A stretch of DNA of 32,000 bases from Candidatus Hermodarchaeota archaeon (GTDB lineage: Archaea; Asgardarchaeota; Heimdallarchaeia; Hodarchaeales; Hodarchaeaceae): assembly GCA_048886185.1 (NCBI GenBank), contig JBHLKY010000011.1:1-32000 (forward strand), in the 5' to 3' direction. The number at the start of each line of letters is the position of its first letter. Within the stretch, counting starts at the first letter, position 1. Below are positions 3,519-8,463 of the stretch, in pieces. The position numbers and the translations under genes are program-made. The notes below the pieces were generated by a model, which did no database searches, was not told the origin of the DNA, and saw only the letters and a program-made list of their open reading frames with translations.

Positions 3519-4367
3519 TCAAAGATAAACAGGTGAGACGATAAGCTCTGGTTTATGCCATTCATAATGAACTGTTGTAGGATGTTTTGTTTGAATCTGA
3601 TAATCAGATAGGGTAGGATTAAATTCTTCAATCTTTTGAATGACATAGTTAATACTATGATTTCCTAAGTTGTTTAGTGCCACATCAACTGTGATCCAAC
3701 TCATTTTAGGAGAAAGAATCTCTCCCCATGCATGGGCTTCAACCCTTGTGCCATTATCTCTAATATAGTAACCAGTTAATCGTTTACATGGAATCCCACG
3801 CATTCGGGCCAATGTTATGAAAAGATCTGTAAATTCATCACAATCACCAATTTCACCCATAAAAGCTTGAAAGGCTCCTAATCTTTCATCTTGATTTTCA
3901 GGATGTTTAATCTTCGTTCTTACATATCGAAATGCTGTTTGTACCCATTGAGAGAGATCATCAGTCTTAAACCATGCAGATTTGGTAATTTCTTGTATTG
4001 TGGGTGACTTTGTAGGCCAATAAATGGAGTTTTCTTGATATTTTGTCCTCAGAGCTTCAGGAATGTCTGATATTTTTCCCCAATCATCTTCTATGTTAAC
4101 AAAAAATGTCTTAGGATATATGGTGACAATTCTCTCTAAGGAAATTACCCCTTTAGTATGTACTTTCTGTTGAAATAAAAAAAAGGCATTTTCTCCTTTT
4201 GTTTTTACCTTACAAAGTTGAGGATATTTGTCAATATGTACAATTTGATGATAATTAGGATAGTGAAAGAACTTTAAACGAATTGATGGCGACCCAGCTT
4301 TTGCACGATATTGCAGCTGCTCCTGATGATGTATTTTCCACCCTTGGATTTGATGGGAAATGACTAT
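3519..4367 (-). CDS. Transglutaminase-like cysteine protease domain protein (~282 aa), probable non-canonical ATA start
   Basis: Catalytic triad GDCDEF / HAW / TVD. Manual translation shows the frame open for 169 codons upstream of the track's ATG at 3860, up to TGA at 4376-4374. GAGGTG lies 7 nt before the in-frame ATA at 4367. Confidence 0.8.
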   Translation of the reverse strand: MVISHQIQGWKIHHQEQLQYRAKAGSPSIRLKFFHYPNYHQIVHIDKYPQLCKVKTKGENAFFLFQQKVHTKGVISLERIVTIYPKTFFVNIEDDWGKISDIPEALRTKYQENSIYWPTKSPTIQEITKSAWFKTDDLSQWVQTAFRYVRTKIKHPENQDERLGAFQAFMGEIGDCDEFTDLFITLARMRGIPCKRLTGYYIRDNGTRVEAHAWGEILSPKMSWITVDVALNNLGNHSINYVIQKIEEFNPTLSDYQIQTKHPTTVHYEWHKPELIVSPVYL

Positions 4368-4947: not shown

Positions 4948-5069
4948 TATTTGAAGTGTAACCTAATATACTTCTTGCTTATATTTCTTAGTATTTGACT
5001 AGCTCTTGAAACTAGTGTTTAAGAGAGTCTATATATCCTGTATTCAATCAAGTGAAGAGAGGTATAATC

Positions 5070-5924
5070 TTGCCATGGCCTTTCAAGAAAAAAAAAGAGA
5101 AGAAGAAAAAGATTTTACCGGAACCACCTTCGTTTTCTAATGAAGTTGACTCATCTATTTCAACACCCCCCATGGAATCTGTTCCTCCCTCAATCAGAGG
5201 ACCACCTGTAGAATCCTCAAGAGAACTATCCCCTCCTTCCATGGGAGGAGTGCCTGTTTATGAAGGGCCACCAAGAGACCCTTCTCCCCCCCCTATCACT
5301 GGACCACCTGTTTATGAGGGACCCCCAAGAGAACCATCTCCTCATCCTTCAGAACTTCCAACTCCCCCCCCTTTCATCAGAACAGATCCTTCAGATAAAC
5401 CGATAAAATCTCAGCAACCAGTTCAAGCACAAACTCCTATATTTAATGATGATCTAGCAGAAGAAATTCATGCTGAATTACGAAAAAGGGATTTTGGATC
5501 AGGAATGAAGAAAGCTCCTGAAAGACAAGCTGTATCTGTATCGACCGAAGACCTAGCTAAGCGTCATTTACGAGATGCAAAACAAGAGTATATTGCAGCG
5601 GCTGAGAAACACCTTGAATTAAACTTTTTTGACAATGCTGCGACTAACTTTGCATGCGCAGTACTTTGCGATTTAATGGCGGAGGGATGGCAAGTAGCTC
5701 GCGAATCAATGACGAAATTGACTTCTGTAGTACCATCTGCAGTGATAGAGAACAGCTTCTTTGATAGTGTTAGATTCCTGCTTGAAGCAATTCGGACAAA
5801 GAATTATACCTTTTTTACTCGTGCTGAACGAAGTCTTCAACAAAGTATGCAACATCTCTACCCTGAAGATGCTGCGATGGTTCAAAAAGCGATAAAAATC
5901 GCACAAGAGCACTTTGGATATTGA
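5070..5924 (+). CDS. Proline-rich protein: polybasic N-terminus, Pro-rich repeats, WH2-like motif, helical SNAP/TPR-like C-terminal domain
   Basis: Long ORF. TTG at 5070 lies 6 nt after GAGGT (the track start GTG 5052 is also possible). Domain labels are by-eye similarities. Confidence 0.7.
   Translation: MPWPFKKKKEKKKKILPEPPSFSNEVDSSISTPPMESVPPSIRGPPVESSRELSPPSMGGVPVYEGPPRDPSPPPITGPPVYEGPPREPSPHPSELPTPPPFIRTDPSDKPIKSQQPVQAQTPIFNDDLAEEIHAELRKRDFGSGMKKAPERQAVSVSTEDLAKRHLRDAKQEYIAAAEKHLELNFFDNAATNFACAVLCDLMAEGWQVARESMTKLTSVVPSAVIENSFFDSVRFLLEAIRTKNYTFFTRAERSLQQSMQHLYPEDAAMVQKAIKIAQEHFGY
5199..5354 (+). repeat. Three imperfect 16-18 aa proline-rich coding repeats (GPPVES--SRELSPPSMG / GVPVYEGPPRDPSPPPIT / GPPVYEGPPREPSPHPSE)
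   Basis: DNA cctgtttatgaagggccaccaagaga at 5253 recurs as cctgtttatgagggacccccaagaga at 5307 (54-nt period). Confidence 0.8.
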
Positions 5925-5970: not shown

Positions 5971-6381
5971 TTATTTGGGATTTTTCTGATATTTCCTTAA
6001 CAATTCTTTACATTCTTCATTGTCTTGATATTCTAGGATGACTCCATGAGATTTCAAGAAATCTTCGGCGCCCATTATCGTTTCATTATCTGCAATGACT
6101 ACTCTAGGAATTTGGAAATAAACAATGGTTCCAGAGCACATCTGACAAGGTGAGAGAGTTGTATACAAGACTGATCTTTGATAATCTTCAGGAAGCAGTA
6201 TCCCTGCGTTCTCTATGGCATCCATTTCCGCGTGCAAGATCACACTTGCTTTTTGTTGGCGCTGATTTCTCCCTCGACCGATTATTTTTCCATCAAGAAC
6301 TAATACTGATCCAATTGGGATCCCATTTTCTTCAAAACCATGTTTAGCTTCTTGAACTGCAACTTGCATAAACTCATCCAT
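5971..6381 (-). CDS. Zinc-dependent nucleobase deaminase, fungal Fcy1-type cytosine deaminase-like
   Basis: GIPIGSVLV, HAEMDAIENAG, LYTTLSPCQMC (HxE...PCxxC) motifs. Confidence 0.85.
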   Translation of the reverse strand: MDEFMQVAVQEAKHGFEENGIPIGSVLVLDGKIIGRGRNQRQQKASVILHAEMDAIENAGILLPEDYQRSVLYTTLSPCQMCSGTIVYFQIPRVVIADNETIMGAEDFLKSHGVILEYQDNEECKELLRKYQKNPK

Positions 6382-6410
6382 TTAGTGTTCACCAAAAAAG
6401 ATACTGGGTT

Positions 6411-7463
6411 TTAGTAAATCCCACCCATGGTTAACGCCATTATAGCTTTTTGCACATGAAGTCGATTCTCAGCCACATCGTAGATACAGGATCGCGGGCC
6501 TGAGGCGACTTCATCAGTCACTTCGTGTCCCCGATCAATGGGCATCGGATGAGTGAAGATTGCATTATCAGTTAACGCCATTTTTTGAGAATCACAGATC
6601 CAAGTGGGATAGTTGAGCGCTTTATCGATTTCCTGTTGTTTTAGAAAGTCCCCATCTAGATAAGCTTCAGGACTCATCCAATGGCGAGAATAGACGACAT
6701 GGGCTCCCTCATACCCTTTGGTGAGATGGTTTGTAACTTCAAAATGAGTATTATATTCATTGCAATTCTCTTCAGTCCGCTTTAAAACCTGAGAATCCAA
6801 ATCATATCCTTCAGGAGAAGCAACGGTGACATCCATACCATAACGTGAGCCAATCAACATGGCTTCTTGAACAGAGCACCATGAACGAGCCAACGCGCCA
6901 TGACCCCAAGTAACCAATAATTTTTTCCCTTTTAAGACTCGCCAATCAGGGGGAAAGCCAATCCCTTTGTTAAACCATTCCGACCAACCCATGACATCTG
7001 CCAAACCCTGACAAGGGTGGTATTTATCATGAGCCATTGAAATGATGGGTATAGTGGACCATTTCGCGTATTCTCGAAGGAGGGCCTCACCCTCGCCATA
7101 TTCACCTACTTTATCTTCAAGTATTCGAATACCAAGACCGTGAGCATACCGAGACATTACTTGTGCAGCATCTTCAACGGTCTCTCCTGCAGTAGTTGCG
7201 GTCTTTAAGCGCATAGCTTTAGGTTCGAGAAATTGGGCATGGCCACCCAATTCTGTAGCAGCTACTTCAAAACTTTGTCTGGTACGAACACTTGGATTAT
7301 AAAAAAACATAAAGAATGTTTTATGTTGTAACAAATTTATATAGCGACGGGAAAACCGTTCCCGCTTCATTCTACCTGCTAGATCTAAAACTAAGTCTAA
7401 TTCGTACTTCTCCCAATCTTGTGTGCAAATCAGATCTCGTCCATATAAATCAGAAAATTCCAT
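6411..7463 (-). CDS. Carbamoyltransferase (ATC/OTC superfamily, YgeW/AOTC-like), paralogue 1, substrate unknown
   Basis: FYNPSVRT, HPCQ, HPMP, AENRLH motifs; no OTC DxxxSMG loop. Confidence 0.85.
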   Translation of the reverse strand: MEFSDLYGRDLICTQDWEKYELDLVLDLAGRMKRERFSRRYINLLQHKTFFMFFYNPSVRTRQSFEVAATELGGHAQFLEPKAMRLKTATTAGETVEDAAQVMSRYAHGLGIRILEDKVGEYGEGEALLREYAKWSTIPIISMAHDKYHPCQGLADVMGWSEWFNKGIGFPPDWRVLKGKKLLVTWGHGALARSWCSVQEAMLIGSRYGMDVTVASPEGYDLDSQVLKRTEENCNEYNTHFEVTNHLTKGYEGAHVVYSRHWMSPEAYLDGDFLKQQEIDKALNYPTWICDSQKMALTDNAIFTHPMPIDRGHEVTDEVASGPRSCIYDVAENRLHVQKAIMALTMGGIY

Positions 7464-7476
7464 ATTTATTCACCTT

Positions 7477-8463
7477 TTATGGTATAATTGTTGTTCCTGC
7501 TTCTCCATCGAGGGCAGCTGCGGCAAGCTCAGGTGTGGTAATCACAACTTTCTTACCTCCAGCTTTTAAAAATCTAATAGCAGCTTTTAATTTAGGCCCC
7601 ATTGAGCCTTTTAACTTTTCTCCGAAAGCTCCTTCTTCTAAGTACTTTTCAACTTCTGATATAGTCATTCTATCAATTCCCTTTTGATCAGGAGTTTTGT
7701 AATGTAGATAAACTTTATCAGTATCAGTTAAAATCGCAAAAGCTTCTGCATTAGTATTACTAGCCAGCCTTTCCCCAGCTAAGTCCTTATCTATGACTGC
7801 TTCGATTCCTGTTATTGAACCATCAGGATTCTTAATAACAGGAATCCCTCCACCTCCACTTGCAACCAGTATAAATCCTGTTTCCAATAAAACATTCACT
7901 TGATCTTTTTCGTAAATTTCTATCGGATCTGGGGAAGGAACTACACGACGGTACCCCCGCCCTGCATCTTCAATTATTGTAAACTCTGGATGATCTACTT
8001 TAATTTTATCAGCTTCCTCTTTGGTATAAAAGGGTCCAACAGGTTTGGTGGGATTTTGGAATGCAGGATCATCCCTAGAGACAACAACCTGAGTCACGAT
8101 CGTCGCAACTTTAATTTTTTTCTCAGGATCTAACCGACTTGGAGGTCCTTCTGTTACCAAGAGATTTCCGAGAATATTTTGAATAAGATACCCTATCTGT
8201 CCTTGTGTCATTGCTCCTGCAACATCCATTGTAAGCAGGGGACGATCATAGGGAGGATGGGAGCCAGCTTCCATTTGTAGCATAAGATTTCCGACTTGAG
8301 GCCCATTACCATGAGTTATTACAATTCGCCATTTCGGAATGACCTTCATGATTTGTTTTGCGGTTTCTGTGACATTTTCGATTTGTTCCTCTAGTGTTCC
8401 TCGTTGTTTCCCTTTGATCATGGCATTTCCCCCAAGTGCAATGACAACTAATGGTTTAAGCAT
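7477..8463 (-). CDS. arcC: Carbamate kinase
   Basis: ALGGNA, HGNGPQVG, PTKPVGPFY, GRGYRRVVPSP, GGGGIPV, VIDKD, GSMGPK motifs. Confidence 0.95.
   Translation of the reverse strand: MLKPLVVIALGGNAMIKGKQRGTLEEQIENVTETAKQIMKVIPKWRIVITHGNGPQVGNLMLQMEAGSHPPYDRPLLTMDVAGAMTQGQIGYLIQNILGNLLVTEGPPSRLDPEKKIKVATIVTQVVVSRDDPAFQNPTKPVGPFYTKEEADKIKVDHPEFTIIEDAGRGYRRVVPSPDPIEIYEKDQVNVLLETGFILVASGGGGIPVIKNPDGSITGIEAVIDKDLAGERLASNTNAEAFAILTDTDKVYLHYKTPDQKGIDRMTISEVEKYLEEGAFGEKLKGSMGPKLKAAIRFLKAGGKKVVITTPELAAAALDGEAGTTIIP

Follow-up and report, generated by a model that had tools for sequence, protein, structure and literature searches.

A described system to which the locus analyzed here can be compared is the central region of CAP/Srv2 (PP1-WH2-PP2), in which proline-rich sequence adjoins a short amphipathic helix, followed by a long linker and an LKKT-like tetrapeptide. 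In mouse CAP1, the WH2 motif places L256 and I260 in the helix and 270-LKHV-273 in the tetrapeptide, with a spacing of 10 residues between helix and tetrapeptide (PMC5951797); in WIP, this spacing is 6 residues (PMC7407642). For Asgard archaea, the only actin-contacting WH2-like motif reported in the literature that we found is that of the gelsolins: in the two-domain forms, the variant LKKT motifs LRRV, LKHV/LRRT and LVDV/LKDV, located between the domains, contact actin (PMC9433394; bioRxiv 10.1101/2025.11.30.690169). A Heimdall profilin binds the VASP peptide PPPAPPLP with a KD of 0.3-3.3 mM (PMC8410842). Asgard archaea have actin, profilin and gelsolins, and the same literature describes neither a nucleation or elongation factor for them nor a natural ligand of the polyproline site of Asgard profilin.

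The window, i.e., the entire 32,000-nucleotide stretch of a Hodarchaeales genome that was analyzed, contains a protein-coding gene at nucleotides 5070-5924 of the forward strand (284 codons followed by a TGA stop codon, as indicated by the open reading frame list and the translation). The sequence-only reading of this DNA described only the first 155 residues of the product; the gene is real, and the open reading frame continues to position 5924, into a helical domain. Translation likely starts at the TTG codon at position 5070, read as Met, because the orthologs and the database copy of the same protein (P0002, 284 amino acids) begin with MPWPF; an upstream GTG at position 5052 was rejected as the start on the same grounds. 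The choice of TTG over GTG is further supported by a Shine-Dalgarno-like GAGGT on the same strand (5059..5063), 6 nucleotides before the TTG. A TATATAT stretch (5030..5036, forward strand), about 35 nucleotides before the start codon, is a possible archaeal TATA box; both elements were recognized from the nucleotide sequence only. Direct reading of the 284 residues reveals no signal peptide and no hydrophobic segment. The immediate neighbors of the gene are metabolic (DUF123, deaminase, carbamoyltransferase and carbamate kinase) and indicate no partner, and no cytoskeleton genes were found in the neighborhoods of the family members examined.

The N-terminal tip of the protein, (M)PWPFKKKKEKKKK (5070..5111, forward strand), is aromatic and polybasic, with the family consensus MP[WF]xxF-K5-7 and a mean conservation, expressed as the fraction of the commonest residue, of 0.71. 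The MARCKS effector domain and the basic region of N-WASP are polybasic/aromatic membrane-binding patches, and the tip resembles them by analogy only, in that a disordered protein ends in 5-7 lysines with Trp/Phe on either side; no such patch is known to bind archaeal lipids. The tip probably anchors the protein to an anionic surface by electrostatic attraction. In the second paralog encoded in the same genome, the basic tip is much weaker, so that membrane anchoring may not be general in the family. Nucleic acid would be an equally possible ligand of a polybasic patch, which counts against the membrane-scaffold explanation developed below.

The tip is followed by a disordered proline-rich arm with x-GPP-[RV] repeats (residues 15-122; 5112..5435, forward strand), delineated by composition, model and alignment. 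It contains a conserved short motif, LPEPPSF (5115..5135, forward strand; family consensus LPxPPS[FL]), two prolines of which, P19 and P20, hardly vary among 45 sequences, the paralog group included; the motif occurs only once among the open reading frames of the genome and is conceivably a ligand of the EVH1 or WW type. Residues 15-126 include 33 prolines out of 112 residues (29%) and three x-x-GPP-x-x repeats, with a longest proline run of 3. In the AlphaFold model, the arm has pLDDT values of 50-73, and residues 1-120 contain no secondary structure. The arm evolves fast (commonest-residue fraction 0.46 and gap fraction 0.21 in 29 homologs), and its length and repeat number differ among orthologs; the 48 stored family proteins contain 0 to 6 copies of GPP[RKVAQ] and longest proline runs of 1-5. 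Profilin ligands typically present an uninterrupted or near-uninterrupted run of about 5 or more prolines, compared to 3 in the window protein, in which weaker profilin-binding motifs may nevertheless exist; runs of 5, with the consensus LPPPPPF, are found in 13 of the 48 proteins. An aromatic/polybasic start followed by proline-rich repeats, as previously claimed for this locus, is thus present, and this architecture is kept across the family.

The arm leads into a conserved island (residues 123-152; 5436..5525, forward strand), defined by alignment and model, that consists of PIFNDD, an amphipathic helix and FGS-x-MKKA-P. The segment highlighted in the sequence-only reading, DLAEEIHAELRKRDFGSGMKKAPER, corresponds to residues 128-152 and lies at nucleotides 5451-5525, exactly as given there. 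In the 29 homologs, the island has no gaps, invariant I, E, L, F and K residues, and a mean commonest-residue fraction of 0.73, compared to 0.75 in the folded domain and 0.46 in the proline arm. The segment is therefore conserved like the folded domain, the opposite of the lack of conservation in orthologs that the sequence-only reading had named as speaking against its proposal. The helix is predicted for residues 127-139 (5448-5486), with I133 and L137 invariant in the 29 homologs and a hydrophobic residue at position 129. Its pLDDT is 69-79 in the full model and drops to 58-65 in the shortened model, so that docking of the helix on the domain is not predicted with confidence; the helix is probably free, with the reservation that low confidence is no proof of being free. 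A MIM1-type ESCRT-III helix was considered for this segment and set aside because the MIM1 spacing, judged by eye, does not fit.

The LKKT-like tetrapeptide downstream of the helix, MKKA (5505..5516, forward strand), varies in the alignment of the family. In most of the close orthologs, it has the form M-K-K-[AVTPI], with variants such as MRKV, MEKT and MTKT; in the next group of relatives, it becomes L-[EAV]-K-[AT]; and in the paralog group, it is LQDT, LRNI, LEAV or LETI. The second paralog of the same genome has LETI, so that the basic pair is gone. In this region, family-wide conservation is limited to the hydrophobic residue that starts the tetrapeptide and to the Pro that comes after it; these, together with the helix and FGS, persist in the paralog and in distant relatives where the basic pair is lost.

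Residues 159-284 (5544..5921, forward strand) are predicted to form a domain of six long helices of the helical-repeat type (TPR-like, Get4/SNAP-like). This bundle of 126 residues has a pLDDT of about 98 in both the full and the shortened model, and its mean commonest-residue fraction of 0.75 is that of the 29 homologs. Its fold neighbors in VIA-align comparisons are all TPR-type adaptors, namely the C-terminal half of Sec17/alpha-SNAP (residues 172-290; Z 12.1, 118 residues, rmsd 3.4), gamma-SNAP (Z 11.8), TRC35/Get4 (7ru9; Z 10.2, 94 residues, rmsd 2.4, 24% identity; C-terminal half only), Rpn (Z 10.1) and Get4 in 3lpz (Z 8.9; C-terminal half only), although Z values of 10-12 are within the range reached by helical repeats without homology. 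With about 120 residues in six helices that form a right-handed TPR-type repeat, the domain, as modeled, resembles the C-terminal half of Get4/TRC35 and that of alpha/gamma-SNAP. It represents only half of the fold of these proteins, which in SNAP is a twisted sheet of helical hairpins followed by a C-terminal bundle, and they carry neither a basic tip nor a proline arm. Sequence profiles give matches below the cut-offs in distant relatives: Pfam GET4 (PF04190) in three short members (best E 0.002, 18.3 bits compared to a cut-off of 30) and Pfam SNAP (PF14938) in one member (E 0.0046). In the window protein, neither model yields a match at E ≤ 10; GET4 has none in the genome either, and SNAP matches 40 other TPR stretches of the genome, not the window gene. 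The nearest clusters in a protein-language-model search consist of archaeal SNAP/TPR proteins (scores 0.84-0.88), a lead only, and a search with residues 1-160 gave no usable match. A Foldseek search of the PDB with the full and shortened models retrieved nothing at E ≤ 0.001, a shape search of the ESM Atlas only generic TPR entries (TM about 0.4), and a profile of residues 118-284 run against the PDB only chance-level matches and designed helical proteins, with no SNAP or Get4 chains. Two other assignments were examined in this region and rejected. In the case of tandem MIT, the matches cover only half of the domain with Z values of about 7-8.4, below those of SNAP and Get4; an RPEL motif, considered by eye at residues 150-167, is contradicted by the lack of RP and of a Pfam match and by the position of these residues in the first helix of the bundle.

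The family comprises about 50 relatives in total, all unannotated, including 29 close homologs; 22 representatives at 50% identity were identified among 1.84 billion proteins. It was found in all 20 genomes sampled from the same genus, mostly with two paralogs each, and in none of the 2 genomes of the sister family or the 55 genomes of five other families of the class. Elsewhere in the phylum, there are 7 weak matches, and the family is rare in other Asgard archaea. Three short relatives of one family (L043-L045) consist of the helix and the domain, without the basic tip or the proline arm, although the helix region aligns poorly in distant relatives and the family profile reaches the helix in only one of the three short forms (L043). 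Because the pair of helix and domain occurs on its own in such short proteins from other Asgard lineages, it looks like the ancestral unit, and the basic tip and the proline arm, both nearly confined to this genus, seem to have been added later. A proline stretch is also present in two distant relatives, and a search for longer forms in which the domain is fused retrieved one protein of 334 residues with an uninformative N-terminus. A comparable small, unannotated family of Asgard proteins, also encoded in this genome (G000:C8:44423-45007), combines a coiled coil, a variable proline arm and a conserved amphipathic helix. There, however, the helical head comes first, the helix forms the very C-terminus and finishes with Trp and acidic residues, the proline motifs are longer (GLPPLPG, LPTPPAP) and the distribution is wider (18 of 18 genomes of the genus and 2 of 2 of the sister family); no sequence similarity between the two families is apparent by eye.

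Altogether, the window protein is tentatively interpreted, with a probability of about 0.45, as a cytoplasmic, membrane-proximal scaffold or adaptor with a Get4/SNAP-like TPR-type domain, essentially restricted to one Hodarchaeales genus. In the arrangement that we infer, including the membrane attachment, the docking roles and all partners, the aromatic/polybasic tip would keep the protein, through electrostatic contacts, at an anionic surface, for which the inner membrane face is the most plausible candidate. The fast-evolving disordered arm would serve as a spacer and, by virtue of its conserved proline motifs (LPxPPS[FL], x-GPP-R repeats and, in the consensus, LPPPPPF), offer multivalent docking to a proline-recognizing partner. 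The island of 25-30 residues, comprising the amphipathic helix and an extended FGS-x-[LM]-x-x-x-P, would act as a free docking motif, and the TPR-type domain, whose fold most resembles the C-terminal half of Get4/TRC35 and that of alpha/gamma-SNAP, as the protein-binding core. That the helix and the domain seem to be the older unit suggests that the helix serves the function of the domain, possibly as a site of partner hand-over or through regulated self-docking, rather than being an actin-monomer-binding WH2.

The same domain could instead belong to a Get4/SNAP-type cofactor that docks an ATPase or a client, with the tip placing the complex at the membrane; the candidate ATPases would be a Get3/ArsA tail-anchor targeting factor or an AAA+ protein such as Cdc48 or Vps4, and the helix would be Get5-like or client-like. 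This explanation is unlikely. Sec17/alpha-SNAP, gamma-SNAP and Get4/TRC35 are indeed the best whole-domain fold matches, the sub-threshold GET4 and SNAP hits in distant members and the nearest language-model clusters point in the same direction, the genome encodes a Get3/ArsA-type ATPase, and the paralog lies tail-to-tail with a gene for an Arf-family GTPase both here and in a more distant relative, which hints at membrane traffic. Convergent neighbors, however, are weak evidence, the Z values are unremarkable for helical repeats, the window protein itself escapes both Pfam models, and the similarity covers C-terminal halves only, which in the case of Get4 is not the part that binds Get3. Moreover, there is no ATPase gene nearby in the loci examined, and nothing in the data points to SNARE, NSF, Get3 or Get5 as partners of the window protein. 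Polybasic tails bind lipids and nucleic acids with equal ease, and this general affinity is compatible with a protein of nucleic acid metabolism or ribosome biogenesis in which the lysine-rich tip would bind RNA or DNA and the domain would recruit a processing factor. The paralog group is divergently paired with a cluster encoding CYTH, an RsmB/F methyltransferase and a UPF0113/Nip7-like protein in three loci of differing relatedness, but it is the paralog with a weak basic tip that has these neighbors, and the neighborhood of the window gene itself is unrelated. Furthermore, no RNA-binding domain was found in Pfam profile searches of the protein and the family, and a basic run with adjacent aromatic residues, together with a proline arm of this length, would be more expected in a membrane-proximal scaffold; this is the least probable of the explanations considered.

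The sequence-only reading had instead proposed an actin regulator with a WH2-like element resembling the long-linker WH2 of CAP. Under this explanation, the tip would tether the protein to the membrane, the arm would recruit profilin-actin, and the helix with MKKA would be a CAP-type WH2 bound in the barbed-face cleft of actin, making the protein an actin-assembly or monomer-delivery factor; we consider this unlikely, and slightly less probable than the Get4/SNAP-type cofactor. What stands of the proposal is the helix, its spacing and its conservation. A WH2 contains an amphipathic helix of 9-10 residues in three turns with a conserved hydrophobic face (PMC7407642), and the predicted helix 127-139 agrees with this description; it is conserved and probably free, and most of the close orthologs have a hydrophobic-basic-basic-small motif after it. 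The CAP motif invoked is real, the helix hydrophobics are four residues apart in both proteins (I133/L137 here, L256/I260 in mouse), and the 9 residues from L137 to M146 fall within the known WH2 range, between the 6 of WIP (PMC7407642) and the 10 of CAP1 (PMC5951797), closer to the latter, which keeps the WH2 idea alive. The context fits as well: the WH2 of CAP is also flanked by profilin-binding polyproline (PMC5951797), variant LKKT-like motifs contact actin in Asgard gelsolins (PMC9433394), a Heimdall profilin weakly binds a polyproline peptide of VASP (PMC8410842), and the genome encodes one eukaryote-like actin, several gelsolin-domain proteins and a profilin-like protein of 122 residues (24.2 bits compared to a cut-off of 25). 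The structure of a closely related Hodarchaeales actin, HC1, has been solved (9wc4). What gained no support is the membership in the WH2 class. WH2 profiles yielded no match at E ≤ 10 in the protein, in the isolated 41-residue segment or in either of two sets of 45 and 47 family members, and WH2 (PF02205) none in the six-frame translation of the genome (26 candidates scored); thymosin (PF01290) produced one match among the family members, at chance level (E 0.59). These models are short and insensitive, so that the lack of a match makes WH2 membership less likely while still allowing a WH2-like function. A profile of the segment compared to the PDB gave chance-level matches that included no WH2- or thymosin-bearing chain. 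The signature tetrapeptide is defined as Leu, two basic residues and Thr or Val (PMC9433394, PMC7407642), whereas the window copy, MKKA, has Met and Ala at the outer positions, in contrast to LKHV/LKKV of CAP. The basic pair is lost in the paralog and in deeper relatives, whereas the invariant FGS and the Pro, which have no counterpart in CAP or other WH2 motifs, are kept. Loose motifs of this kind are common in the proteome: [LM][KR][KR][AVT] occurs 409 times in 377 of the 2,680 long open reading frames (14%), in 169 of them after a periodic hydrophobic stretch, so the bare LKKT-like pattern is not above chance, whereas the conserved element is. In addition, the helix accompanies the helical domain in proteins that lack the proline arm, the longest proline run of the window copy falls short of a typical profilin ligand, and the family is confined to one genus whereas actin, profilin and gelsolin are widespread. 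The protein also differs from CAP in the absence of the helical-folded domain and the CARP domain and in the TPR-like domain that follows; in Asgard gelsolins, the motif extends a cleft-filling gelsolin domain, whereas here, there is no gelsolin domain and a free helix would bind the cleft. Overall, the evidence leans against a genuine WH2. Actin binding by the window protein would be a minority possibility, and there is a similarly slim chance that the island is an independently evolved or very divergent CAP-type WH2 that would take part in a membrane-tethered hand-over of profilin-actin or actin monomers to Hodarchaeales filaments.

With respect to the actin regulators and profilin ligands not yet described in Asgard archaea, the window protein is a concrete, conserved candidate that relies on short linear motifs carried by a disordered arm, a design that is typical of eukaryotic signaling and cytoskeletal scaffolds and unusual in prokaryotes. 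Because the family is found in one genus, its bearing on the ancestor of eukaryotes is limited. If the helix does bind actin, regulation of the WH2/polyproline type would predate eukaryotes, and a true WH2 would make this protein the first free-standing WH2/proline-rich actin-assembly factor in archaea, none having been reported in the literature found. If the helix does not bind actin, the case would caution that LKKT-like strings occur too often for WH2 motifs to be called by eye, and the family would represent a lineage-specific TPR-type adaptor that gained a basic tip and a proline arm.

The finding is carried in its entirety by a single forward-strand ORF that starts with TTG at 5070 and encodes 284 residues followed by a TGA stop codon at 5922-5924, in a window of low GC content (33-42%). 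The alternative GTG start at 5052 was set aside because the database copy of the protein (P0002; 284 aa, 99% identical) and nearly all orthologs begin with MPWPF or MPFGPF, and GAGGT is located 6 nt 5' of the TTG. All sequence strings quoted in the sequence-only reading are present at their positions in the translation. The polybasic tip is encoded by nt 5070-5111 and the segment DLAEEIHAELRKRDFGSGMKKAPER by nt 5451-5525; proline accounts for 29% of residues 15-126, with a longest run of three. The protein extends beyond residue ~155, where the earlier description ended, into a helical domain of 126 residues.

The gene is real and conserved. Among 5.8 billion proteins, a word-indexed search retrieves 29 homologs (E 1e-47 to 1e-184), all unnamed or "hypothetical"; when 1.84 billion cluster representatives are searched exhaustively with HMMER, residues 112-284 match only 22. 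The named database entries of the family derive from Heimdall/Hodarchaeota metagenome assemblies; no Pfam family matches the window protein, and a literature search found no description of the gene or family. Four conserved parts are apparent in the alignments: the tip (MP[WF]xxF, a run of five to seven lysines and LPxPPS[FL]); a proline-rich stretch that varies between members, carrying 0-6 copies of GPP[RKVAQ] and, in the consensus, NLPPPPPF; an island at residues 123-152, P-[LI]-F-[DN]-D-x-[LI]-x-x-E-I-H-x-E-L-R-x-x-x-F-G-S-x-M-K-K-x-P-E-R; and the helical domain, which contains KHLELNFYDNAA, ACAILC and LYPED. Among 29 close sequences, the mean fraction of the commonest residue is 0.71 in the tip, 0.46 in the proline arm, 0.73 in the island and 0.75 in the domain, so that the island is a conserved element within a fast-evolving disordered region. 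The segment singled out previously is thus kept in orthologs almost as well as the folded domain.

In a six-frame search of 300 genomes of the phylum with the family profile, the family is present in all 20 other genomes sampled from the genus, usually in two copies, with no match in the two genomes of the sister family (80-85% complete) or in 55 genomes from five other families labeled as the same class. The second match in the genome of the window is a paralog on contig C36. Seven genomes from other families give weak matches (E 1e-13 to 1e-17, with one at 4e-6). Three of these weakly matching relatives (L043-L045), all from one family, are short proteins of about 165-180 aa as read, made up of a helix at the N-terminus (EEILIELSKKLEEMRRGEKILSP in L043) and the helical domain, with neither basic tip nor proline arm. 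L041 is likewise short but has a different N-terminus, L042 is longer, with LKKM at the end of its helix and a proline stretch after it, and L040 (P0050) is longer with an additional N-terminal part. Homology of the island helix to the helix of the short relatives is only suggested at this distance, because, of the three, only L043 is covered by the family profile in this region.

In the AlphaFold2 model built with 45 sequences, residues 1-126 have no secondary structure (pLDDT 50-73), a helix forms at 127-139 (block-mean pLDDT 69-79) and a bundle at 159-284 reaches a pLDDT of about 98. A model of residues 118-284 (47 sequences) retains the bundle, but the pLDDT of the helix drops to 58-65, so that the helix is not confidently placed on the domain; its behavior in these models is that of a docking motif that folds conditionally. 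An exhaustive structural comparison with 48,161 PDB representatives places the C-terminal half of Sec17/alpha-SNAP on top (Z 12.1, 118 aa, rmsd 3.4), followed by gamma-SNAP (Z 11.8), TRC35/Get4 (Z 10.2, 94 aa, rmsd 2.4, 24% identity) and a proteasome lid subunit (Z 10.1), values that helical repeats attain without homology; MIT and Tom20 domains align to just half of the domain (Z about 7-8.6). Foldseek and Atlas shape searches with the models returned nothing significant, and the SNAP and GET4 models did not pick up the window gene in the six-frame genome search. Below the Pfam threshold, GET4 matches three distant short members (E 0.002) and SNAP one member (E 0.0046); the language-model neighbors, archaeal SNAP/TPR clusters (scores 0.84-0.88), are a lead only. 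The domain appears to be of the TPR type, Get4/SNAP-like by fold, a likeness of fold and not proven family membership.

The sequence-only reading took the island for a WH2-like segment and the protein for a candidate membrane-tethered profilin-actin recruiting factor. WH2 combines a 9-10-residue helix that binds in the barbed-face cleft with a subsequent LKK(T/V) (PMC7407642). Its signature is leucine, two basic residues, then threonine or valine, and Asgard gelsolins contact actin through the variants LRRV, LKHV and LVDV (PMC9433394); in mouse CAP1, the corresponding positions are L256, I260 and 270-LKHV-273 (PMC5951797). The conserved amphipathic helix of the island, with I133 and L137 four residues apart, resembles this arrangement, as does the tetrapeptide, which is of the hydrophobic-basic-basic-small type in most close orthologs. 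CAP does have a long-linker WH2 flanked by polyproline: the helix-to-tetrapeptide spacing is 10 residues in mouse CAP1 (PMC5951797), against 9 here, which is more than in WIP (6). However, the window tetrapeptide, MKKA, has M and A at both defining ends, and the basic pair is not kept outside the first orthologous group: LEKA, LAKA or LVKA takes its place in the next group, and LQDT, LRNI or LEAV (LETI in this genome) in the paralogous group. Family-wide conservation covers the helix, F-G-S, a single hydrophobic position and a proline, features that lack a WH2 counterpart, and proteins devoid of the proline arm appear to pair this helix with the helical domain.

Profile searches point the same way. 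The Pfam WH2 model is silent on the protein, the isolated segment, the sets of 45 and 47 family members and, at E<=10, the whole genome; the single thymosin match among family members (E 0.59) is noise, and when 177,635 PDB sequences are searched with a profile of the segment, none of the matches at E<=10 is a WH2 or thymosin chain. The bare pattern [LM][KR][KR][AVT] is common, being present in 377 of the 2,680 long ORFs of the genome, in 169 of them after a periodic hydrophobic stretch. None of the tests run supports the WH2/actin reading and the conservation pattern weakens it; that the segment is a WH2 of an actin-binding protein appears quite unlikely.

The genome encodes one actin (380 aa, 442 bits against Pfam Actin), very close to the solved "HC1 actin", and a profilin-like protein (122 aa) that scores 24.2 bits, just below the Pfam cut-off of 25. 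The gelsolin model matches at six places, four of them above the cut-off in three ORFs. Two of these ORFs, G000:C22:66001-67161 (+), with two domains, and G000:C6:206334-207287 (+), also contain proline-rich stretches, so that in this genome such stretches accompany established actin-binding modules. A Heimdall profilin has weak affinity for a VASP peptide (KD 0.3-3.3 mM), its natural ligands being unknown (PMC8410842). Because proline runs reach only three residues in the window copy and five in 13 of 48 family proteins examined, the window protein is a possible but not strong candidate for a profilin ligand. Neither a hydrophobic segment nor a lipobox follows the basic tip, for which peripheral electrostatic membrane binding would be the natural inference; the tip of the paralog is much less basic.

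Other proline-rich proteins are encoded in the same genome. A 195-aa protein with no Pfam match (G000:C8:44423-45007 (+), L052:2024-2608), from a different Asgard family found in 18 of 18 genomes of the genus and both genomes of the sister family, starts with a conserved head of ~55 aa that is helical (DDFFGDDESQNV...). LPTPPAP and GLPPLPG are conserved within its otherwise variable, proline-rich center, and the 26 aa of the C-terminus, SPMSLKAQMNMELKEAFARIKKGW plus an acidic end, are near-invariant; its convergent neighbor is a Get3/ArsA-type ATPase. With longer proline motifs than the window protein and a Trp-acidic tail, it looks the more obvious polyproline candidate by architecture alone, and is equally unproven. 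Three reverse-strand ORFs without Pfam matches, G000:C8:82821-84530 and G000:C8:85106-86782 (L053; 570 and 559 aa) and G000:C16:49557-51389 (L054; 611 aa), have hydrophobic, apparently membrane-spanning N-terminal stretches; at the other end, a tail rich in proline and containing PPPPP runs leads into a short amphipathic helix that is conserved (…STSIAELRGEMLKEL… and …DKLKKMLLDELDKY). A proline stretch followed by a short helix thus recurs in several unrelated-looking proteins of this genome.

The window gene is preceded on the same strand by a DUF123 gene and faces genes for a cytidine deaminase-like protein, a carbamoyltransferase and a carbamate kinase. Relatives at 40-57% identity keep the same arrangement, which says nothing about function. 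The latter three genes are clustered downstream in one orientation on the reverse strand (5971-8463 (-)), and this cluster is syntenic in relatives. A separate ORF at 3519-3860 (-), only 113 aa long, aligns with profile positions 52-107, in the C-terminal part of the transglutaminase-core model, and may be truncated or mis-started; at its place, the relatives L004 and L005 have a transglutaminase-like gene of 266-276 aa. The paralog (G000:C36:9415-10107 (+), L039:3004-3711; E 4e-73 to the family profile), with LETI where the window copy has MKKA, belongs to a group that is divergent from a CYTH - RsmB/F - UPF0113 cluster and, in two loci, tail-to-tail with an Arf-family GTPase. On its own contig it sits between the two, 18 nt from the convergent GTPase gene, an arrangement repeated in the more distant relative L007.

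Altogether, the most economical reading is that this family is a genus-restricted scaffold. Its ancestral unit would have been the helix together with the Get4/SNAP-like TPR domain, which would then have acquired the basic tip and the motif-bearing proline arm.
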